Of a stretch of DNA of 64,000 nt, positions 3,767 through 63,188 are shown in pieces. Position 1 is the first letter of the stretch. Each line of letters starts with the position of its first letter. The position numbers were made by a program, and so were the translations under genes. Under the pieces are notes generated by a model. The model did not search any database and was not told the DNA's origin. It saw only the letters and a program-made list of their open reading frames with translations. This DNA is from Nitrospirota bacterium. GTDB taxonomy: Bacteria > Nitrospirota > 9FT-COMBO-42-15 > HDB-SIOI813. The stretch covers positions 1,391 through 65,390 of the forward strand of contig JACRGV010000005.1 of NCBI GenBank assembly GCA_016212215.1, in the 5' to 3' direction.

Positions 3767-4543
3767 TTATATTGGTGTGTTCATGATTTTTTGTGAGAGT
3801 GTTGATTCCCAGCACTGAAGTGTCTTTATTGCGTTGAATTCAGTAAGGTCAAGGCGGAGGGGGGTTATTGATACCATGTTTTCTTCGATTGCTGAGAAAT
3901 CGCTGTCTTCTGTCTTCTCCCATGAGAGTCTGCTCCCGCCGATCCAGTAATATTTCCGGCCCCTCGGATCTACTTTCTCAACTATCGCATTTTTGTCGTA
4001 TATACGCTTACCCTGACGTGTTATCTTCATCCCTCTTATCTCACTCATATCCAGATTGGGGACATTTACATTAAGTAAGACACCGGCAGGCAATGATTGC
4101 TCTTTGACTAATGCGGCAATAATACATGCAATCCGGGCAGATGTCTCAAACTTATAATCTCCCTCTGCAACCTGTGATACAGCAAATGACGGGACTCCGA
4201 GTAATGTGCCTTCAAATGCTGCGGACACTGTCCCTGAATATGTAACATCATCTCCAAGATTTGCACCCTTATTTATACCCGATACAACAATATCCGGCTT
4301 TGCCGGGAGTATCCCATTGATGGCAAGATTAACACAATCAGTCGGCGTACCGCTTACGCTATAGGTTTTATCAGCAACCTCATCCATTCTCAGAGGCTTG
4401 TGTAATGTGAGTGCATGACTTGCCGCAGTCCTCTCCCTGTCAGGAGCAACAATATACACCTCACCAATGACTCTGAGTGCATCAGCAAGTATGTGAAGCC
4501 CCTTTGAATGTATACCATCGTCGTTAGAAACTAAAATTAGCAT
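3767..4543 (-). CDS. surE: 5'/3'-nucleotidase SurE.
   Basis: N-terminus MLILVSNDDGIHSKGL...; the SurE signature DDG and the overall length match. Confidence 0.9.
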   Translation of the reverse strand: MLILVSNDDGIHSKGLHILADALRVIGEVYIVAPDRERTAASHALTLHKPLRMDEVADKTYSVSGTPTDCVNLAINGILPAKPDIVVSGINKGANLGDDVTYSGTVSAAFEGTLLGVPSFAVSQVAEGDYKFETSARIACIIAALVKEQSLPAGVLLNVNVPNLDMSEIRGMKITRQGKRIYDKNAIVEKVDPRGRKYYWIGGSRLSWEKTEDSDFSAIEENMVSITPLRLDLTEFNAIKTLQCWESTLSQKIMNTPI

Positions 4544-6310: not shown

Positions 6311-6527
6311 CCCTACGGCGGGGTAAGAAAACCCCGCCTACAGCAATTCTCTGTGAATCATATCTCCATTGCTAATACGGGACAAGAATGTCCCGCCTAT
6401 CGCGATAGGCGGGGTTTTCTAACCCCGCTGTAAGAGCATTTGCCCGATATTTCACCGAGAATTGCTGACCCCGCCTATCCATTTCTATGAGGATAGGCGG
6501 GACATTCTTGTCCCGCTGATTTTCTAA
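6311..6527. repeat. Hairpin-module repeat element (second copy of the 4575-4650 type), split by the nested MITE insertion.
   Basis: cggcggggtaagaaaaccccgccta | MITE | tccatttctatgaggataggcgggacattcttgtcccgc. Confidence 0.7.
6341..6467. mobile_element. MITE copy B: 127 bp with the same 17-bp TIRs, flanked by the 9-bp duplication CCCCGCCTA, inserted into another repeat element.
   Basis: Near-identical to copy A (about 3 substitutions). The TSD was read directly: aaaaCCCCGCCTA|cagcaatt...aattgctg|aCCCCGCCTAtcc. Confidence 0.8.
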
Positions 6528-6622: not shown

Positions 6623-8206
6623 CTACCCATCATTCATCACCTTATCTTTGAGTAACTTATATTCTATGCTATCCACAAGTGCCAACCAGCTTGCCTCAAT
6701 GATATTATCTGAAACCCCTACTGTCCCCCACTTTCTCTGTTTATCCCCTGATTCAATCAAGACCCTCACCCTTGAGGCCGTACCTCTCACGCCTGTAAGT
6801 ACCCTCACCTTATAATCAATTAAGCCGACATCTTTGAGTGATGGATAAAACTTTTCAAGTGCCTTTCTTAGTGCATTATCAAGTGCATTAACAGGGCCAT
6901 TTCCGACTGCCGCAGTATGCTCAATATCACCGTCTACATTAAGCATTATCGTTGCCTCTGATTCCGTAGATGCCCCTTCTTTTCTCTTCTCCACAATAAC
7001 CCTGAAGCCTATAAGGTTAAAAAAACTCTTATGAAGGCCAAGCGACCTCTTCATCAGGAGTTCAAATGACCCCTCAGCGCCCTCAAACTGATACCCCTTG
7101 TCTTCCATCTCCTTCAATACATTCAGTACATTCTGCAATTTCGGATGGTCTTCCTGTTTAACAATAATACCGTAATCACCGGCCTTCTGAAGAATAGTGC
7201 TTATGCCTGAATAGTCCGATACAAGCATCCTCCGGACATTTCCCACGTCACCAGGATTTACATGCTCATAGGTATTTGATTTCTTCCTGACTGCATGAAC
7301 ATGAAGCCCGCCTTTATGTGTAAAGGCGCTGTCCCCTACATAAGGCTGGCGTCTGTTTGGAGGTATATTGGCTATCTCACTTACAAAATGCGATACATTA
7401 CGCAGATTTCTGAGCTGCTGGTCAGGTATGCAGTCTATATCAAGTTTCAGTTTCAGGTTCGGTATTATTGAACAAAGATTGGCATTCCCGCACCTTTCCC
7501 CCAAGCCATTGATCGTCCCCTGAACATGAGATGCCCCTGCCTCCACTGCCATAATTGAATTGGCAACCGCAAGGTCAGAGTCGTTGTGGGCATGTATCCC
7601 GTAAGATACCTTTACCTCACGCCTTGTATCTTTAAATATCCTCTTTATATCATCAGGCATGGTCCCGCCGTTGGTATCACAGAGTACAACACAATCCGCC
7701 CCGCCTTCGAGAGATGCCTGAAGTGTCTGAATTGCAAATTCCGCATTAGCCTTGAAACCATCGAAGTAATGTTCAGCGTCAAAGAATACATACTTACCTT
7801 CTGACTTCAGATATGAAACAGATTCTTTTATCATCTCTAAATTCTTTTTCAGGGTTATGCCGAGTGCCTCTGTTACATGAAAATCCCAGCTCTTACCGAC
7901 TATTGTAACACAACCGGTCTCTGCCTGCAGAAGTGCAGTAATATTAGGGTCTTTCTTTACATTAGTAGCAGCCTTCTTTGTACTGCCGAAGGCTACTATT
8001 TTTGAATTATTAAGATGAAGATTCTTTACCTCTTTGAAGAACCTTGTATCTTTTGGATTTGCACCAGGGAATCCTCCCTCAATATAATGGACACCAAGAG
8101 AATCCAGCTTTCCGACAATCCTAAGCTTATCTTCAAGCGTAAAAGAGACATCCTCAGCCTGCGCCCCATCACGGAGGGTTGTATCGTAAATTAGTATTTT
8201 TCTCAT
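6623..8206 (-). CDS. cimA: (R)-citramalate synthase / 2-isopropylmalate synthase family, with a LeuA-type C-terminal regulatory domain.
   Basis: MRKILIYDTTLRDGAQAEDVSFTLEDKLRI... DRE-TIM metallolyase N-terminus. The 527-aa length and the C-terminal allosteric domain are typical of CimA. Confidence 0.75.
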   Translation of the reverse strand: MRKILIYDTTLRDGAQAEDVSFTLEDKLRIVGKLDSLGVHYIEGGFPGANPKDTRFFKEVKNLHLNNSKIVAFGSTKKAATNVKKDPNITALLQAETGCVTIVGKSWDFHVTEALGITLKKNLEMIKESVSYLKSEGKYVFFDAEHYFDGFKANAEFAIQTLQASLEGGADCVVLCDTNGGTMPDDIKRIFKDTRREVKVSYGIHAHNDSDLAVANSIMAVEAGASHVQGTINGLGERCGNANLCSIIPNLKLKLDIDCIPDQQLRNLRNVSHFVSEIANIPPNRRQPYVGDSAFTHKGGLHVHAVRKKSNTYEHVNPGDVGNVRRMLVSDYSGISTILQKAGDYGIIVKQEDHPKLQNVLNVLKEMEDKGYQFEGAEGSFELLMKRSLGLHKSFFNLIGFRVIVEKRKEGASTESEATIMLNVDGDIEHTAAVGNGPVNALDNALRKALEKFYPSLKDVGLIDYKVRVLTGVRGTASRVRVLIESGDKQRKWGTVGVSDNIIEASWLALVDSIEYKLLKDKVMNDG

Positions 8207-8220
8207 ATATTCTTTTATAG

Positions 8221-8303
8221 GTTATGGGTAACGGGTTACAGGTAATGAGTAAGAAGTATCCCTTCTTGCTTCTTACCTCTAACTTCTAACTTCTTCCTTC
8301 CAG
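8221..8303. repeat. Heptanucleotide arrays in both orientations (GGTTATG/GGTAACG... then CTTCTTG/CTTCTTA/CCTCTAA...).
   Basis: 7-nt periodicity read directly. The two oppositely oriented halves can pair as a long imperfect hairpin, lying between the lysC stop and the cimA start. Confidence 0.7.
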
Positions 8304-9555: not shown

Positions 9556-9987
9556 TTATAAACTATGGTTCTTAAGATTTTTCTGCGAGTAACTACTTTC
9601 CCCTCCCTTGATGGGAGGGGTTAGGGGAGGGTGATTCAAACAATTCTCCCTAATAACTTCTAATACTCCCTCTATGTTTACTAACACTTCATTATTCCAA
9701 AATCTTAAAACCTTAAACCCCTGTGAGCTAAACCATTCGTCTCTTTCCTTATCTTTGTCTATTTCTATTGAATGCTGTCCCCCGTCAACTTCTATTATTA
9801 TTTGTTTTTCATAACAAACAAAATCTACAACATACTTACCAATAGGCTCCTGCCTTCTGAATTTATATCCTTCTAACTGCTTTGCTCTTAAATATTTCCA
9901 TAATACATTTTCTGTATCAGTTAATCTCTTTCTAAGAGTTTTAGCTATATTATTTATTTTGTTCTTAAATGTCGTAGGCACCCCCAC
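9556..9987 (-). CDS. DUF559-family protein (Vsr-like endonuclease fold), flanked on both sides by GC-hairpin repeats.
   Basis: ...YVVDFVCYEKQIIIEVDGGQHS...RDEWFSSQGFKVLRFWNNEV is the DUF559 core. The C-terminal HPPLTPPIKGGES is read from repeat copy 9598-9633. Confidence 0.6.
   Translation of the reverse strand: MGVPTTFKNKINNIAKTLRKRLTDTENVLWKYLRAKQLEGYKFRRQEPIGKYVVDFVCYEKQIIIEVDGGQHSIEIDKDKERDEWFSSQGFKVLRFWNNEVLVNIEGVLEVIRENCLNHPPLTPPIKGGESSYSQKNLKNHSL
9598..9633. repeat. GC-hairpin repeat copy.
   Basis: ccctcccttgatgggaggggttaggggaggg. Confidence 0.75.
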
Positions 9988-10017
9988 CCTACCCCTCCCC
10001 CATCAAGGGGGAGGGAA
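9980..10017. repeat. GC-hairpin repeat copy.
   Basis: cacccccaccctacccctcccccatcaagggggagggaat. Confidence 0.8.
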
Positions 10018-10320
10018 TCTAATAAACATAGTTATTAATCCACCACTTTTGGATGAACTCTTTCGTCATATAATGAAACTCTCCCATCCTCATGGAGAAA
10101 AAGAAAAGGCTCTATTGACCACCACCGACGCGCTGGTGGAAGGTTTACTACAGAGGCCATTAATGCCTGCCATATCCTGTTGTCCTTCCATAAACCCATT
10201 GGCCTCACCCGACTGAATAGCTCAGAGAAAGATATTATCTCTCCATGTAAAATAGCTTTCCGAATTGCTTCAGGGCAAGACTCCCCCTTAATCCCTTTTC
10301 CCATCTTTTTCTCCTTTCCT

Positions 10321-10383
10321 TTGTCTTCTCCTATCTTGCTTCTTACTTCTGACTTCTTGCTTCTACCTTCTGCTCACTGCTGC
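10321..10383. repeat. Heptanucleotide tandem array.
   Basis: cttgcttcttacttctgacttcttgcttctaccttctgctcactgc. Confidence 0.7.
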
Positions 10384-11627: not shown

Positions 11628-11696
11628 TTTCCTTCTTTCTTCTTACATCTTACATCTTACATCTTGCTTCTTACTTCTTACTTCTAACTTCTTCCC
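11628..11696. repeat. Heptanucleotide tandem array.
   Basis: tcttacatcttacatcttacatcttgcttcttacttcttacttctaacttctt. Confidence 0.8.
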
Positions 11697-14140: not shown

Positions 14141-14220
14141 TAGCTCACCCCCACCCTGACCCTCCCCCCTCAAGGGGGAGGGAAACTTAGTTCCCTCTCC
14201 CTGAGAGAGAGGGAACTCCC
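14141..14220. repeat. GC-hairpin repeat, long form (atagctcacccccaccctgaccctcccccctcaagggggagggaaa, plus a second hairpin ccctctccctgagagagagggaa).
   Basis: The same about 50-bp unit recurs at 46533, 48141 and 45283. Confidence 0.85.
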
Positions 14221-14227
14221 ATCTGTA

Positions 14228-14268
14228 ATCTTACTTCTTGCATCTTTCTTCTTACATCTGCTCAACAC
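14228..14268. repeat. Heptanucleotide tandem array (short).
   Basis: cttacttcttgcatctttcttcttacatctgc. Confidence 0.6.
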
Positions 14269-15441: not shown

Positions 15442-15473
15442 AATATTTCTTTACAAATCCTTTCTATTTTCAT

Positions 15474-15523
15474 CCCCTCACCCTTACCCTCTCCCCTGAG
15501 GGGAGAGGGTAAGGGTGAGGGGG
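15474..15523. repeat. GC-hairpin repeat: a perfect 50-bp palindrome (cccctcacccttaccctctcccc-TGA-ggggagagggtaagggtgagggg).
   Basis: Perfect inverted repeat read directly, 30 bp upstream of the aminotransferase start. Confidence 0.85.
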
Positions 15524-15888
15524 TAAACATAATCTAAGTAGTGAGATAATAAAGATTTTACCTGTTATTGTCAAACAGAAAATCACTTGATTTTGTTACT
15601 ACGGAGTCATTAATTTTACAAGGACAAAATTTGAGGCTTCCTTTCGTAACCTTTTACAATTTTTTTCAAACCCGTAAGGGGAAAGTTGTAACAGTATGTT
15701 TAAAAGTTCGTGCAGATGTTTCTGATTTTGTGTAATCATTTCCGATAAATCAACAACATCTTCATTGGGTTGTTTTTATAAAAAAGTGCTTGAAAATAAT
15801 AGTTCAATTATGTTATTTTTTCTACCTGTAAATTTTCCTTATTATAATTATAATCTAAACAACTGATAGACAAGTCAGGGGGGAGCTA

Positions 15889-17490: not shown

Positions 17491-17535
17491 CGCCCACCCC
17501 CACCCTACCCCTCCCCCCTCAAGGGGGAGGGAATT
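17491..17535. repeat. GC-hairpin repeat copy.
   Basis: cgcccacccccaccctacccctcccccctcaagggggagggaa. Confidence 0.8.
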
Positions 17536-18143: not shown

Positions 18144-18208
18144 ATCTTACTTCTTAATTCTTGCCTCTTGCTTCTACCTTCTACCTTCAGCCTTACTACC
18201 TCTTACCT
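18144..18208. repeat. Heptanucleotide tandem array.
   Basis: cttacttcttaattcttgcctcttgcttctaccttctaccttcagccttactacctcttacc. Confidence 0.75.
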
Positions 18209-33333: not shown

Positions 33334-33412
33334 CCACCCCCACCCTAACCCTCCCCCGTCAAGGGGGAGGGAATAATTGATATAACCTCTCCGTCAAGTG
33401 GGAGGGAATATT
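33334..33412. repeat. GC-hairpin repeat (two hairpins).
   Basis: ccacccccaccctaaccctcccccgtcaagggggagggaat...ctctccgtcaagtgggagggaat. Confidence 0.8.
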
Positions 33413-46532: not shown

Positions 46533-46579
46533 CATAGCTCACCCCCACCCTGACCCTCCCCCCTCAAGGGGGAGGGAAA
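46533..46579. repeat. GC-hairpin repeat, long form (atctccatagctcacccccaccctgaccctcccccctcaagggggagggaaa).
   Basis: Identical unit to 14141 and 48141. Confidence 0.85.
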
Positions 46580-48140: not shown

Positions 48141-48268
48141 ATAGCTCACCCCCACCCTGACCCTCCCCCCTCAAGGGGGAGGGGATAGATACGCAACGCC
48201 CTATCCATTCAGTTGCTCTTCTGATCTCCCCTCCCCTTGCGGGAGGGGATTATGGGGAGGGGGGGTTA
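48141..48268. repeat. GC-hairpin repeat cluster (long form plus two additional hairpins).
   Basis: atagctcacccccaccctgaccctcccccctcaagggggagggg...tcccctccccttgcgggaggggattatggggaggggggg. Confidence 0.85.
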
Positions 48269-49605: not shown

Positions 49606-49708
49606 TTGCTCACCCCCACTCTAACCCTCCCTCGTCAAGGGGGAGGGAATTTTCGTTTCCATCTGCCCCCCTATCCCCTCCCGTCTTATTAATTAGCGAA
49701 GGGGGAAT
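49606..49708. repeat. GC-hairpin repeat (two hairpins).
   Basis: gctcacccccactctaaccctccctcgtcaagggggagggaat...cccccctatcccctcccgtc...gaagggggaat. Confidence 0.8.
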
Positions 49709-49718
49709 TTTCAGTTGT

Positions 49719-49770
49719 ACTTCTTACTTCTGCCTTTCTTGCTTCTTACTTCTAACTTCTTACTTCTGTT
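49719..49770. repeat. Heptanucleotide tandem array.
   Basis: cttcttacttctgcctttcttgcttcttacttctaacttcttacttctg. Confidence 0.75.
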
Positions 49771-53084: not shown

Positions 53085-53174
53085 CCCACCCTCCCCCTAC
53101 CCCCTCCCGTCAAGGGAGGGGGAATTAAGATAGCAACCTCTCCCCTGGCGGAAGATGGCCCTGGTGAGTGGGTC
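53085..53174. repeat. GC-hairpin repeat (two hairpins).
   Basis: cccaccctccccctaccccctcccgtcaagggagggggaat...cctctcccctggcggaag. Confidence 0.8.
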
Positions 53175-53184
53175 ATTCTTTTTT

Positions 53185-53289
53185 CTTGCATCTTACCTCT
53201 AACTTCTTACCTCTAACATCTTACTTCTTGCATCTTACATCTTACTTCTTACTTCTTGCATCTAACTTCTTACTTCTGACTTCTTACCT
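53185..53289. repeat. Heptanucleotide tandem array, the largest in the window (15 units: CTTGCAT CTTACCT CTAACTT CTTACCT CTAACAT CTTACTT CTTGCAT CTTACAT CTTACTT CTTACTT CTTGCAT CTAACTT CTTACTT CTGACTT CTTACCT).
   Basis: Units read directly. It overlaps the stop codon of the 849-aa GT gene. Confidence 0.9.
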
Positions 53290-55819
53290 CAGGTCTTACA
53301 ATCTTTTTTGCCCCTTCATGGTTAGGTTCGATCTCAAGAACCCTGCGATAAAAAGTGGTCGAATCTTCCACATATCCATTGGATTTAAGCAGTGATGCCA
53401 GCCTGAATATAGCCTCTGCATGCTCAGGATTAGATGAGATGGCCTCACGATATTGATCAAAGGCATCCTGTGGAAAACCCAGTGCCTCCAGCATCAGACC
53501 GCAGTTATATCTTGCGCTTGCATCTCTCCTGTCAAGCTCCAGTGTGCTTGTAAAATATTTTAATGCCTCGACATAGTTATTCTGTTTTGCATAGAGGACA
53601 CCGAGATTGAAATGCGTCCTCTTTCTTGATGAATCAATTACAAGGGATTTTTTCAGCAGCTCCTCAGCACGGAAATAATCCCCTGATGCGGTATAATGAC
53701 TGCCGAGGTCACACATAGATTTAGAATCAAACGGGTTTTCCTGTATCCCCTTCTCCCCCAACTCCCTGTAATATTCAAATTTTTTATTATTATCACGATC
53801 ACTCCTGACGTAACCATAATGATGAACAGGTATATCTGTATTTATAATTGATATACCTAAATTACTCATTGATGGTTCAACGACCTCATGCGATTTTCCT
53901 ATGTACCTTAATCCCTCTTTCCTCCTGAAAAGCCTCGTTAACGGTACCTCTCCATATCCGGGGTAATCTTTACCTTCTTCATAATCATAAGAGTTATGAT
54001 GCCATCCTGTGATTCCACCCTTAAATTCATAATTTCTCAGAATCAGACTATATGCATCTATCCCAGGATGCTTAATAATTTCCCGTATCTTCTTTATATC
54101 CTTTTCAGCAATAACCTCATCTGCATCCAATACAAGTATCCATTCACCGCCTGCATTTTCAAGGCATACATTCCTTGCCGCACTAAAGTCACCTTCCCAG
54201 TTATGATTAATTAGATTTGCGCCAAACCCCTTTGCAATCTCAATAGTACGGTCAGTTGAGCCTGTATCCACAATGATTATTTCATCTACATAACCTTTGA
54301 CACTTTCAAGACATCTGGAAAGATATTCTTCTTCATCCTTAACAATCATGCAGAGGGAGAGGCGTGGTTCAGGCGTAGTTAAACCCATCCCCACCCTAAC
54401 CCTCCCCTTGAAGGGGAGGGAATCTTGTGGAGGGGGCGGCAATTCGACACTTCTTGACTTTCCATCCCCTTGCGGGAGGGCTGCAATTATGTTACTTCCA
54501 AATTCCTCCCCCACTTGCGGGGGGAGGCAGGAGGGGGGGGGATTAGCGGGGGTCTGGTTTGCCTTATCCGTATGCTCAAGCTCCTCTGCCTTTCTAACCA
54601 AGGCATCTCCGGTGACATTGTCTCCGAGCTTCATACTTACATGCCCAAGTCTTTTATATGCATCAGGGAAATCCGGTTTGATTGAAAGGGCCTTTTCATA
54701 ACATTCAATAGCCTTCAGAAAATCAGAAACCTTCTCAAGTAATATTCCGTAATTGAATAAAACAATATAGTGGTCAGGATTCGCTTTTATTGCATTTTCA
54801 TAATAACCCTTTGCCTCATCGAATCTACCCTCTTCATTCAATATGCCGGCAAGATTATTACTTGCACCGACATTTCCTGTTTCAAGTCTTAATGCCTCAA
54901 GATAACATGATTTTGCCTCAGCCTTTTTCCCCAAATTCTCATAAGCTACACCAAGGTTAAAATGTGCATGGGCTGATGACGGGTCAAGCTCTACAGCCTT
55001 CTTTAAGACGGTTTCTGCCTCTCTGAATAATCCCATTTCAATATACTGGGTTCCAAGGTCCCTTTGTGCACGTGCATCCTCAGGATTCAACGCAACCTTT
55101 TTCTCACCGGCCTCCACATATATTTGATTTTTCTGGTCCATACGCCCCTTTTCCAGCATCCTTCCATAATGATGAATGGGAATATCCGTAAGAACGATAA
55201 TGCCGCCTCTATCCGTTATAGAGTACTCAACCACTTCATGTACAACGCCCTGAAAAAGAATCCCGTCTCCCCTGCGGAACAGCCTGACAAGGTATGCAGG
55301 TACATAGCCGGATGCACCAAGTGCTTCAGGACAATCTCTCTCAACACTGTACCAGTTTGCAATCCCGCCATTATCCTGATAATTCCTGAGGACAAAGCGG
55401 TAACCAGTAACTTTTTCGCTCGAAAATACCCCCCCAAGCCCCCCCTTGTTAAGGGGGGGATGTTCGTTATCCTTCAAAATTATCCCCCCCTTTATAAGGG
55501 GGGGCTTGGGGGGGTGATTTTCATCAGTAAGTAATGTCTTAATCCTCTCATGGTCTTTCTTTGCAATAACCTCATCTGCATCCAAAACAAGAATCCAATC
55601 TCCGGATGCATGCTTCAGGGATTCATTCCGTGTCTTACTGAAGTCATTTTCCCATTGATGGAAATAAACTTTTGCCTCAAATTCTTTTGCAATACTAACC
55701 GTATTATCAACTGAACCCGTATCAACAATAATTATCTCATCAACAAGACCCTGCACACTTTCAAGACACCTCTTAATATGTCTTTCCTCATTACGTACAA
55801 TCATGCACAACGAAAGCAT
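53270..55819 (-). CDS. Dual-GT2 glycosyltransferase with TPR repeats (849 aa); two repeat copies inserted in-frame in linkers.
   Basis: GT2 #1 MLSLCMIVRNEERHI...IIVDTGSVDNT...LDADE; GT2 #2 LSLCMIVKDEEEYL...IIVDTGSTDRT...LDADE. Linker segments PPKPPLIKGG...PPLNKGGLGG and LPPQVGEEFG...LPQGDGK...TTPEPR are repeat-encoded. Confidence 0.8.
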   Translation of the reverse strand: MLSLCMIVRNEERHIKRCLESVQGLVDEIIIVDTGSVDNTVSIAKEFEAKVYFHQWENDFSKTRNESLKHASGDWILVLDADEVIAKKDHERIKTLLTDENHPPKPPLIKGGIILKDNEHPPLNKGGLGGVFSSEKVTGYRFVLRNYQDNGGIANWYSVERDCPEALGASGYVPAYLVRLFRRGDGILFQGVVHEVVEYSITDRGGIIVLTDIPIHHYGRMLEKGRMDQKNQIYVEAGEKKVALNPEDARAQRDLGTQYIEMGLFREAETVLKKAVELDPSSAHAHFNLGVAYENLGKKAEAKSCYLEALRLETGNVGASNNLAGILNEEGRFDEAKGYYENAIKANPDHYIVLFNYGILLEKVSDFLKAIECYEKALSIKPDFPDAYKRLGHVSMKLGDNVTGDALVRKAEELEHTDKANQTPANPPPSCLPPQVGEEFGSNIIAALPQGDGKSRSVELPPPPQDSLPFKGRVRVGMGLTTPEPRLSLCMIVKDEEEYLSRCLESVKGYVDEIIIVDTGSTDRTIEIAKGFGANLINHNWEGDFSAARNVCLENAGGEWILVLDADEVIAEKDIKKIREIIKHPGIDAYSLILRNYEFKGGITGWHHNSYDYEEGKDYPGYGEVPLTRLFRRKEGLRYIGKSHEVVEPSMSNLGISIINTDIPVHHYGYVRSDRDNNKKFEYYRELGEKGIQENPFDSKSMCDLGSHYTASGDYFRAEELLKKSLVIDSSRKRTHFNLGVLYAKQNNYVEALKYFTSTLELDRRDASARYNCGLMLEALGFPQDAFDQYREAISSNPEHAEAIFRLASLLKSNGYVEDSTTFYRRVLEIEPNHEGAKKIVRPEVRSQK
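54384..54545. repeat. GC-hairpin repeat cluster (4 hairpins) in-frame inside the 849-aa GT.
   Basis: cccatccccaccctaaccctccccttgaaggggagggaat...tccatccccttgcgggagggc...cctcccccacttgcggggggagg. Confidence 0.85.
55428..55518. repeat. GC-hairpin repeat variant (poly-C/G arms) in-frame inside the 849-aa GT.
   Basis: cccccccaagcccccccttgttaaggggggga...tcccccccctttataagggggggcttggggggg. Confidence 0.8.
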
Positions 55820-57499: not shown

Positions 57500-57591
57500 C
57501 CCCATCCCCACCCTAACCCTCCCCTTGAAGGGGAGGGAATTCTGGGGTAACGACAACCCCATCCCGTCAATTCCATGTAAGGGTGGATTTC
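57500..57591. repeat. GC-hairpin repeat (two hairpins).
   Basis: cccatccccaccctaaccctccccttgaaggggagggaat...ccccatcccgtcaattccatgtaagggtgg. Confidence 0.8.
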
Positions 57592-57602
57592 TTGTGATAT
57601 CC

Positions 57603-57654
57603 TTGCTTCTTACATCTAACTTCTTACTTCTGCTAACTGCTTACTCTTTCTTAT
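57603..57654. repeat. Heptanucleotide tandem array (overlaps the csrA stop).
   Basis: cttgcttcttacatctaacttcttacttctgctaactgcttac. Confidence 0.7.
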
Positions 57655-61696: not shown

Positions 61697-61817
61697 CCCC
61701 ATCCCCACCCTAACCCTCCCCTTGAAGGGGAGGGAATAAACATAGCACCCTCTCCCCTCTTGCTTGCTCGTCTAATCTCCCCTCCCCTTGCGGGAGGGGA
61801 TTAAGGGGAGGGGGGGC
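61697..61817. repeat. GC-hairpin repeat cluster (3 hairpins).
   Basis: ccccatccccaccctaaccctccccttgaaggggagggaat...ccctctcccctcttg...tcccctccccttgcgggaggggattaaggggaggggggg. Confidence 0.85.
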
Positions 61818-61884
61818 TTCTTACTTCTTGCTTCTAACTTCTTGCTTCTTTTATCTGCTAACTGCTTACTGCTTACTGCTCACT
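61817..61884. repeat. Heptanucleotide tandem array.
   Basis: cttcttacttcttgcttctaacttcttgcttctt...ctgctaactgcttactgcttactgctcac. Confidence 0.75.
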
Positions 61885-62977
61885 ATATTATTTCAAGGTC
61901 CGCCTGCAACGCCCCTGCCTCTTTAATCGCCTGCAGTATTGCTATCAAATCGCGCGGCGTAACACCGACAGAGTTGAGTGCCCTTACAACCTCATCAACT
62001 GTCACACCTGACTGCAGTACCATCAGCCTTGCCTGCGGCTCATCAACTGAGACATCAGGCTGAGGCACAACCACTGTCTCGCCCTTTGAAAATGGCCCGG
62101 GCTGAGAGACCTTCATCTGTGTCTTTATTTGAATAGTAAGATTCCCATGAGATATGGCTACAGTTGATATTCTTACATTCTCTCCCATAACCACAGTGCC
62201 GGTACGTTCATTTAAAACGATTCTTGCAGGCGCATCAACTTTAATGTCAAGATTTTCTACAGATGCTATAAGCTCTACAACCCTATTCTTATATTCCTCA
62301 GGTATAGATAGAACAACAGTGCTTGAGTCTTTTGGATAGGCCAGTTTCTTCTGAGTAAAACGGTTAATTGAATCAGAAAGCCTGACTGCTGTACTGAAAT
62401 CCTGTTGTCTCAGAGAGATCATAACTTCATCTTTGGCATTCATATCCATCTCTACTTCCCGCTCTATTATTGCACCATTTGCAATCCTGCCTACAGTTGA
62501 ATGATTCTTCTGAACACTATTACCCTCAGAGCCTCCGGTATACCCTCCAAGGGACATTGGCCCCTGTGCAACTGCATACACAACCTGATTTGCACCTTTC
62601 AGAGGGGTCATCAAAAGTGTCCCTCCCTGAAGACTTGTGGAGTCCCCGATTGACGAAACTATCACATCAAGTTTATTCCCTTTTTTTGCAAATGGCGGAA
62701 GCTTCGCAGTAACCACAACAGCCGCAATATTCTTAACACTTATAACCGAAGGGTCTACAGTAATACCCATTTTTGTAAGCATTGTTGCTGTACTTCTAAT
62801 AGTAAAATCAGTCCCCTTCTTATCACCGGTACCATTAAGCCCAATCACGAGGCCATAACCGACAAGCTGATTATCCCTCACCCCACCAACAGTAGCCACA
62901 TCCTTCACACGAACAGCATGGGCAACGCCGGCAAAGAGGAGAAATATTAATAATGTTAATGATAGAATCTTTTTCAT
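61883..62977 (-). CDS. flgI: Flagellar P-ring protein FlgI.
   Basis: Signal peptide, then VRVKDVATVGGVRDNQLVGYGLVIGLNGTGDK, the canonical FlgI start. Confidence 0.95.
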   Translation of the reverse strand: MKKILSLTLLIFLLFAGVAHAVRVKDVATVGGVRDNQLVGYGLVIGLNGTGDKKGTDFTIRSTATMLTKMGITVDPSVISVKNIAAVVVTAKLPPFAKKGNKLDVIVSSIGDSTSLQGGTLLMTPLKGANQVVYAVAQGPMSLGGYTGGSEGNSVQKNHSTVGRIANGAIIEREVEMDMNAKDEVMISLRQQDFSTAVRLSDSINRFTQKKLAYPKDSSTVVLSIPEEYKNRVVELIASVENLDIKVDAPARIVLNERTGTVVMGENVRISTVAISHGNLTIQIKTQMKVSQPGPFSKGETVVVPQPDVSVDEPQARLMVLQSGVTVDEVVRALNSVGVTPRDLIAILQAIKEAGALQADLEII

Positions 62978-63040: not shown

Positions 63041-63090
63041 GTCTAACTTCTTGCTTCTTGTTTCTTGCTTATAATTTCTTCCTTCTAACC
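63041..63090. repeat. Heptanucleotide tandem array.
   Basis: ctaacttcttgcttcttgtttcttgcttataatttcttccttctaacc. Confidence 0.65.
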
Positions 63091-63110: not shown

Positions 63111-63152
63111 CTCACCCTCCCCCTGCCCCCCTCCCGTCAAGGGAGGGGGAAT
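63111..63152. repeat. GC-hairpin repeat copy.
   Basis: ctcaccctccccctgcccccctcccgtcaagggagggggaat. Confidence 0.8.
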
Positions 63153-63188
63153 TCTTGCTTCTGCTAACTATTCACTATTCACTGCCTT

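Follow-up and report, generated by a model that had tools for sequence, protein, structure and literature searches.

A stretch of 64,000 nucleotides (nt) from contig JACRGV010000005.1 of a Nitrospirota bacterium (assembly GCA_016212215.1), referred to here as the window, carries tandem arrays of degenerate heptanucleotide units in the spacers behind its genes. About 89% of the window is coding and about 11% non-coding, the minus strand holds nearly all genes, and the non-coding part holds every one of the 13 period-7 arrays, which are spread over 11 intergenic spacers located between or behind minus-strand genes. The arrays were detected with Tandem Repeats Finder and with our own self-identity period scan, and their chance level was estimated from 100 local dinucleotide-preserving shuffles. 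Tandem Repeats Finder delimited period-7 arrays at 1683-1734, 8262-8300, 10334-10371, 11632-11693, 14228-14259, 18145-18201, 49718-49767, 53184-53287, 57602-57631, 61817-61884, 63042-63088 and 63167-63183, to which an array of opposite orientation at 8221-8260 is added. The period scan gave 11 runs of period 7, compared with a mean of 0.09 and a maximum of 1 in the shuffles; the other periods from 3 to 13 gave 0-3 runs each, and period 14, i.e., 7 x 2, gave seven. The original prediction, made from the sequence alone, of heptanucleotide tandem arrays enriched at period 7 and associated with gene boundaries rather than uniformly spread is therefore borne out, the largest array having 14.9 units.

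This largest array is the one flagged originally (53184-53287, minus strand, 77% matches). It consists in mRNA sense of GTAAGAA, GTAAGAT, GCAAGAA and GTTAGAG units, and its start falls within the final codons of the GT2-TPR gene (53270-55819). Among the other minus-strand arrays, that at 1683-1735 lies right behind the LexA stop codon and reads TAG, then TGAGCAG TAAGGTG TTAGCAG TAAGCAG AAGTCAG AAGTAAG AAGCAAG. The array at 8262-8303 overlaps the aspartate kinase gene at its 3' end and forms a weak inverted repeat with the sole array of opposite orientation (8221-8260, plus strand; GTTATGG GTAACGG GTTACAG GTAATGA GTAAGAA), which ends 15 nt upstream of a cimA-like start codon. Minus-strand arrays also begin at the ApgM stop codon (10334-10376; TGA, then GCAG AAGGTAG AAGCAAG and further units), lie between the ThrC-like gene and ApgM (11632-11693; about nine units) and follow an aminotransferase stop codon (14228-14259; about 4.6 units, then a GC-rich hairpin at 14160-14182). 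The spacer between a hybrid histidine kinase and an isochorismatase (PncA-like) gene is filled by an array from the stop codon to 14 nt before the next start (18145-18205, minus strand). Behind an epimerase stop codon there are about seven units (49718-49769, minus strand), then GC hairpin elements at 49625-49647. Upstream of fliW, the array at 57602-57643 (minus strand) begins within the CsrA stop codon (GAG TAA, then GCAG TTAGCAG AAGTAAG and so on), and the GC hairpin 57517-57537 comes next. About ten units (61817-61885, minus strand) stand right behind the FlgI stop codon, with TWAGCAG near the stop and GYWAGAA farther off. The FlgH-FlgI array, finally, is in two halves on the minus strand: the proximal one (63150-63186) starts about 5 nt past the FlgH stop codon, and the distal one (63042-63088) is cut off from it by an inserted GC hairpin element.

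The arrays form clusters at 1.6-18.2 kb and 49.7-63.2 kb. The region 18300-49700 is an island of flagellar filament and flagellin-glycosylation genes, which encode FliD, flagellin, giant glycosyltransferase/TPR/methyltransferase proteins and radical SAM enzymes. No heptamer arrays were found in this island despite spacers of 50-290 nt, and its GC content is partly lower (0.37-0.38).

The consensus of 82 phased units is G-Y-W-A-G-A-W on the mRNA strand (WTCTWRC on the plus strand), the commonest units being GTAAGAA (15), GCAAGAA (13), GTAAGAT (8) and GTTAGAA (5). Unit positions 1, 4 and 5 (G..AG) are near-invariant and the remaining positions variable, in a tally that is partly circular, since the units had been picked on those same positions. 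Units near the stop codon are of the TGAGCAG, TAAGCAG or TTAGCAG type, and GAAG-type units are found farther off. In mRNA sense, the 706 nt of array sequence contain 48% A, 30.5% G, 15% T and 6.3% C, and in 12 of 13 arrays the mRNA strand is the purine-rich one. The predicted purine-rich reading on mRNA therefore stands; the AAGG/GAGG motifs expected with it are minor, and G-Y-W-A-G-A-W describes the unit better than (AAGNAAG)n. The array sequence contains 69 stop triplets, and TAA, TAG or TGA codons cover all three frames within about three units. GGG occurs three times and GGA seven times, the latter compared with about 31 expected from composition, which is an approximately four-fold depletion. 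The flagged array is predicted to be unstructured in mRNA sense (-2.5 kcal/mol for 111 nt, z = 0.44), by which a stable RNA structure of single arrays was rejected, and no Rfam family was matched anywhere in the window at gathering thresholds.

The arrays are anchored at the preceding gene. In 11 of 11 spacers, the offset of the sense array from the upstream stop codon is -9 to +23 nt, and all of these spacers are laid out alike: the stop codon is followed by the array, in some cases by a GC-rich hairpin repeat, then by a Shine-Dalgarno-like sequence and the start codon. The distance from the array end to the next start codon ranges from 14 to about 115 nt, and in 6 of the 11 spacers the GC hairpin and 60-115 nt lie in between. 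Only three to four arrays reach within about 15-25 nt of the next start codon; to this extent the earlier statement that several arrays lie just upstream of start codons is correct, but the correlation of array position with gene starts and stops identifies the upstream stop codon as the constant anchor. Two genes take their stop codon from array sequence. The aspartate kinase, terminated by an array unit, ends with LEGRS* in the window and with LEG* in the sister contig L127, and is thus longer by two amino acids (RS); the TAA stop codon of the GT2-TPR gene is made by the flagged array, whose units encode the protein tail EVRSQK*.

The best matches to FlgI and ApgM belong to metagenome-assembled genomes of uncultured Nitrospirota, in agreement with the non-cyanobacterial host that had been proposed from gene content. 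In sister genomes, whose proteins are 85-95% identical, the corresponding spacers also contain arrays; the flanks are conserved, and the unit numbers differ. A 1.2-kb Logan contig of the same strain with the exact FlgI protein (L126) has an identical FlgI array. L001 and L002 (FlgI 95% identical in amino acids and 89% in nucleotides) and L127 (ApgM 93% identical in amino acids) have arrays in the same spacers, and the arrays behind FlgI in L001 and L002, as well as that behind ApgM in L127, are orthologous to those of the window with different units and unit order. L001 and L002 encode an identical FlgI protein, yet differ from each other in unit order. Between identical flanks, the ThrC-ApgM spacer holds about nine units in the window and about five in L127, so the unit number varies between related genomes as was predicted. 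The FlgH-FlgI spacer of L001 is occupied by one uninterrupted array, free of the GC hairpin inserts seen in the window. Farther away, only vestigial units are left in L128 (GCA_023248365.1; ApgM 85%); in L003 (FlgI 88%), three degenerate units stand between FlgH and FlgI, and there are none behind FlgI, where the spacer measures 14 nt; L004 and L005 (FlgI 78%) have no arrays; and the gene table of a 74% relative shows an unchanged gene order and spacers of 11-30 nt. Short-read contigs of the host lineage break off inside arrays. On the basis of these comparisons, the arrays are a lineage-specific and hypervariable feature, located inside putative operons.

Other differences between the relatives were noted in the same regions. 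Two small open reading frames (ORFs) at 9556-10304, of 143 and 89 amino acids, separate apgM from the aspartate kinase gene; the shorter one matches no Pfam family, and both are absent from L127 and L128. Other repeats occupy the orthologous spacers of L128 at 1640-1823, 4230-4307 and 6842-6962, namely ACGG-type heptamers (GGTTTAC GGATAAC GGTAAC GGATCAC) and a hairpin element, TGTCATTCCCAC...GGGAATGAC.

The GC-rich hairpin beside the flagged array (53100-53122, CCCCCTCCC-GTCAA-GGGAGGGGG) is a member of a separate dispersed family. The repeat, CCCTCCCCC-N5-GGGGGAGGG, is flanked by AATT and has about 20 copies in the window, including those at 9993-10015, 14160-14182, 17509-17531, 33349-33371, 46554-46576, 48161-48183, 49625-49647, 53100-53122, 57517-57537, 61714-61734 and 63127-63149. 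G-runs such as GGGGGAGGGTGGG often occur 3' of the hairpin in mRNA sense and look quadruplex-capable. Arrays and GC hairpins share 6 of the 11 spacers, and in all six the array comes first in mRNA sense. The arrays had been described as often abutting such a hairpin; the shared spacers are there, but their number is not significantly above chance for elements confined to spacers (about four expected from a rough hand count), and a specific association was rejected. The GC hairpin repeat looks mobile and younger than the FlgH-FlgI array, given that it is not present in the FlgH-FlgI spacer of L001 and that one window copy splits the array.

The same unit family is found in other phyla. A pattern scan of species-representative genomes for AGAWGYWAGAWGYWAGAWGYWAGA gave at least 120 loci, and the matches listed, to which all cross-phylum counts given here refer, include Bacteroidota, Acidobacteriota, Cyanobacteria, Bacillota, Proteobacteria, Nitrospinota, Nitrospirae, Patescibacteria and other groups, many of the matches having several period-7 arrays. 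Among the carriers are culturable bacteria such as Chryseobacterium sp. JM1, Chishuiella changwenlii DSM 27989 and Flavobacterium profundi. From them we took 232 purine-biased period-7 arrays, read along the purine-rich strand, with genes defined as simple ORF calls and the unit family restricted by the seed pattern. An ORF of at least 120 codons ends between -40 and +21 nt from the 5' edge of the array in 90 cases on the purine-rich strand compared with 23 on the other strand (p = 1.5e-10); when only stops before the array are counted, the numbers are 52 in purine sense and 15 in pyrimidine sense. All phylum groups show this bias on the 5' side in the same direction, and in four of the six it reaches significance. 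Arrays are nearer to the 5'-side than to the 3'-side ORF in 104 versus 49 cases. In the seed set, array and downstream gene show no correlation in orientation (39 versus 37), and in the fuller set the arrays that face a gene 5' end lie at a median of 86 nt from the start with no significant orientation (64 versus 48). An origin of the arrays from ribosome-binding-site sequence was ruled out, because arrays track the upstream stop codon rather than the downstream start codon and also lie between convergent genes. Unit homogeneity along the arrays showed no 5'/3' gradient (n = 48, p = 0.6), by which polar growth of the arrays was rejected. The window units lack G-tracts and form no G-quadruplexes, and quadruplex formation therefore cannot cause the closeness to the 5'-side ORF. 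Since 232 purine-biased arrays of many phyla obey the stop-codon rule, our data suggest that the rule is general and independent of quadruplex formation.

The opposed arrays at 8221-8303 are the sole pair of this kind in the window. They had been described as able to fold into a hairpin of roughly 35 bp, but the arms found (8235-8256 and 8269-8290) are 22 nt long and 73% complementary, and the fold has -24.3 kcal/mol with z = -1.77, which excludes a 35-bp stem. L127 has (CCATAAC)x4 at the orthologous site with a fold of z = 0.07, and we therefore also rejected a long hairpin as a conserved feature between the aspartate kinase gene and cimA. In other lineages, adjacent opposed arrays are arranged head to head rather than tail to tail at a ratio of 13:1, and head-to-head arrays in several of these lineages form very stable hairpins (z from -3 to -10). 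Examples are L089 1886-1993, L119 2830-2955, L085 2309-2400 and L114 3646-3771, with -44 to -55 kcal/mol and z from -6 to -10, from groundwater and sediment lineages of Nitrospinota, Nitrospirae, Omnitrophota and Saprospiraceae.

Both the stop-proximal positional rule and comparable heptamer families have already been published (PMC4692102, PMC4679880). The GGGAATC repeats of Xanthomonas and the GGGGA(C/T)T repeats of Nostoc PCC 7120 are placed on the coding strand, either overlapping stop codons or at most 50 bp away from them (Rehm et al. 2015, PMC4692102); they lie nearer to the 5'-side ORF in either ORF orientation, vary between species and are mostly transcribed, and no function was found for them (PMC4692102). 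The window arrays resemble these repeats as purine-rich 7-nt tandems that are intergenic, enriched between co-directional ORFs and widely different in length and sequence at the same loci of related species, and inverted pairs occur in both (PMC4692102). The placement behind co-directional genes is likewise shared by the sense arrays of all 11 spacers. On the other hand, no tandem GGGNATC or GGGGAYT was found in the window, the units lack the tracts of at least three G per unit that a G-quadruplex of four units needs and are a degenerate mixture, there is no preference for four units (2.4-15 units), and the host belongs to the phylum Nitrospirota.

The TAACTGA direct repeats of marine Beggiatoaceae and of some Cyanobacteria and Bacteroidetes (MacGregor 2015, PMC4679880) carry, when read in the dominant orientation, stop codons in every frame, which restrict overlap with the ORF end; their phylogenetic distribution is patchy, and a post-transcriptional role has been proposed (PMC4679880). 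The window arrays are similarly intergenic heptamer direct repeats with one dominant orientation to genes, predicted to be unstructured, and the stop triplets in all their frames include the two that terminate genes. In Beggiatoaceae, the repeats have 2-6 copies, stop about 1 nt short of the start codon and stand in for the ribosome-binding site, whereas the window arrays have 4-15 units, are anchored at stop codons and are followed by Shine-Dalgarno-like sequences; tandem TAACTGA was found on neither strand of the window. The cyanobacterial STRR repeats have the consensus sequences CCCCA(A/G)T, TT(G/T)GTCA and CAACAGT. The parallel drawn with them in the original prediction is apt in so far as they too are tandem heptanucleotide arrays dispersed in the non-coding DNA of one lineage, but tandem STRR units themselves were not found in the window, and the host lies outside the cyanobacteria.

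Among the long simple sequence repeats of prokaryotes, those with heptanucleotide units form the commonest class according to Mrazek 2007 as cited in PMC4679880 and PMC4692102, and polymerase slippage was proposed as their cause (Mrazek 2007 in PMC4679880). As far as those citations characterize such repeats, i.e., as longer-than-chance tandem arrays of 5-11 nt units with sporadic phylogeny, the window arrays are the same in kind: they are tandem beyond chance, and the number and type of their units vary between conserved flanks. A Nostoc preprint reports no more than modest effects of heptamer repeats (10.1101/2022.06.06.494920). Judged by their unit sequences, the window arrays are a further lineage and unit family of intergenic heptanucleotide repeats.

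We hold with moderate confidence that the arrays are slippage-driven heptanucleotide microsatellites which expanded in one Nitrospirota lineage and whose position and orientation were filtered by selection. Arrays would gain and lose 7-nt units and swap unit variants through replication slippage or unequal recombination between units, as the variable-number pattern between relatives leads us to infer. They would survive only where they do little harm, which would be the spacer right behind a stop codon, presumably transcribed within the operon mRNA, and the tolerated orientation would be that with the purine-rich strand on the mRNA. Transcripts in purine sense would be unstructured and poor in C, and therefore a poor loading site for the terminator Rho, so that selection may be what gave the arrays their polarity. 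Since the units bring stop codons in all three frames, an array may abut or overwrite the end of a gene and translation would still terminate. The net effect would be that intercistronic spacers grew from about 10-75 nt to 70-210 nt and became hypervariable. Several points weigh against this explanation. The near-invariance of G..AG could reflect a binding motif instead of shared ancestry, and the persistence of arrays in the same spacers at about 89% nucleotide identity of FlgI is compatible with selective maintenance. In the cross-phylum set, a weaker closeness to the 5'-side ORF is seen even when this ORF is antisense (median 75 versus 150 nt), which lies beyond the stop-codon and Rho arguments. 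The polarity also seems to be present in cyanobacteria (5:1, not significant), which to our knowledge have no Rho. The gene calls, moreover, are simple ORF calls.

Several other explanations have to be considered. It is possible, though unlikely, that the arrays are cis-acting RNA elements of polycistronic mRNAs, in which unstructured purine tracts would be binding sites for a factor that recognises single-stranded RNA. Such a factor could be ribosomal protein S1 or the 30S subunit (at a standby site), a cold-shock protein or Hfq, and its binding would adjust how adjacent cistrons are translated, re-initiated or stabilised. The shared polarity with the mRNA, the predicted lack of structure, the near-invariant G1, A4 and G5, the three or four arrays that end 14-26 nt from a start codon and the retention in the same spacers of sister genomes are all consistent with such a role, and similar proposals exist for the TAACTGA repeats (PMC4679880) and the Nostoc heptamers (10.1101/2022.06.06.494920). 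However, the arrays are anchored at stop rather than start codons, 6 of the 11 spacers place a GC hairpin and 60-115 nt between array and next start, unit number and order are not conserved, relatives with the same operon have vestigial arrays or none, and in the cross-phylum set the arrays show no significant link to the orientation of the downstream gene. A mutational origin of the polarity seems distinctly improbable to us. Past the stop codon, the nascent RNA would be free of ribosomes, and purine RNA would hybridise with the pyrimidine-rich template in an R-loop whose displaced DNA strand favours slippage, so that purine-sense repeats expand. Hybrids of purine RNA with pyrimidine DNA are unusually stable, and the transcription-dependent instability of GAA.TTC repeats is established. 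R-loops would account for the sense polarity, for the start of arrays at the stop codon and for the occurrence of one rule in the A/G-rich units described here and in the G-rich units of Xanthomonas and Nostoc (PMC4692102), but the absence of a 5'-to-3' homogeneity gradient argues against them, and the weaker closeness to antisense 5'-side ORFs is left unexplained.

Termination of antisense or read-in transcription appears very unlikely. Here, the opposite strand of the arrays, which reads (CUUCUUA)n and is C/U-rich, poor in G and unstructured, would be a loading site for Rho that together with the GC hairpins stops transcripts entering the 3' end of a gene from downstream. The antisense strand of the arrays has 30% C and 6% G, several GC hairpins are terminator-like on the plus strand because AATT and T-rich sequence come next, and in antisense the hairpin is followed by the pyrimidine tract in six of six spacers. 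The T-rich tail is, however, mostly the AATT flank of the hairpin itself and not the array, hairpin-free arrays are common, and the counts of intrinsic terminators and promoters at arrays were not above shuffle controls (terminator-like sites 18 versus 11.1 +/- 3.8 and 18 versus 14.5 +/- 4.1, not significant). The titration of CsrA, one of the functions considered in the original prediction and linked to the csrA-fliW genes of the window, is scarcely credible, as its core motif GGA is depleted in the arrays. One array begins at the csrA stop codon and the arrays are purine-rich, but their predicted unstructured state offers no hairpin loop to present a binding site, the window matched no Rfam family, and the same arrays stand at many unrelated loci and in many phyla. 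We regard it as rather doubtful that the (GYWAGAW)n and GGGNATC arrays make up one cross-phylum class, anchored at stop codons, polar with respect to the mRNA and positioned by a single mechanism independent of G-quadruplexes. Such a mechanism could be R-loop expansion behind stop codons or an RNA-level termination or insulation of cistrons, and a shared RNA-level role could include the long hairpins of the head-to-head arrays.

Heptanucleotide arrays are the most abundant long microsatellites of bacteria. Arrays of A/G-rich units that form no quadruplex and obey the stop-proximal, coding-strand rule narrow the possible explanations of their placement. Such arrays change the C-termini of proteins, lengthen operon spacers and interrupt short-read assemblies, and they could act as strain markers for this uncultured Nitrospirota group.

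The window contains further repetitive elements. A 127-nt direct repeat with 98% identity and three GC hairpins inside is present at 1451-1577 and 6341-6467; part of it also opens the sister contig L127, and it is therefore a second dispersed element of this Nitrospirota lineage. An inverted repeat with 39-nt arms of 90% complementarity (55423-55461 and 55482-55520) lies inside the GT2-TPR ORF between the glycosyltransferase and TPR domains; a palindromic element may have inserted there in frame. The 447-nt spacer that precedes the aminotransferase-hom-thrC-apgM gene row contains a near-perfect palindrome of the CCCTCACCC/GGGTGAGGG type (15465-15531; 33-nt arms, 91% complementary), and beside the palindrome there is a strong TTGACA-17-TATTAT match at 15574-15546.

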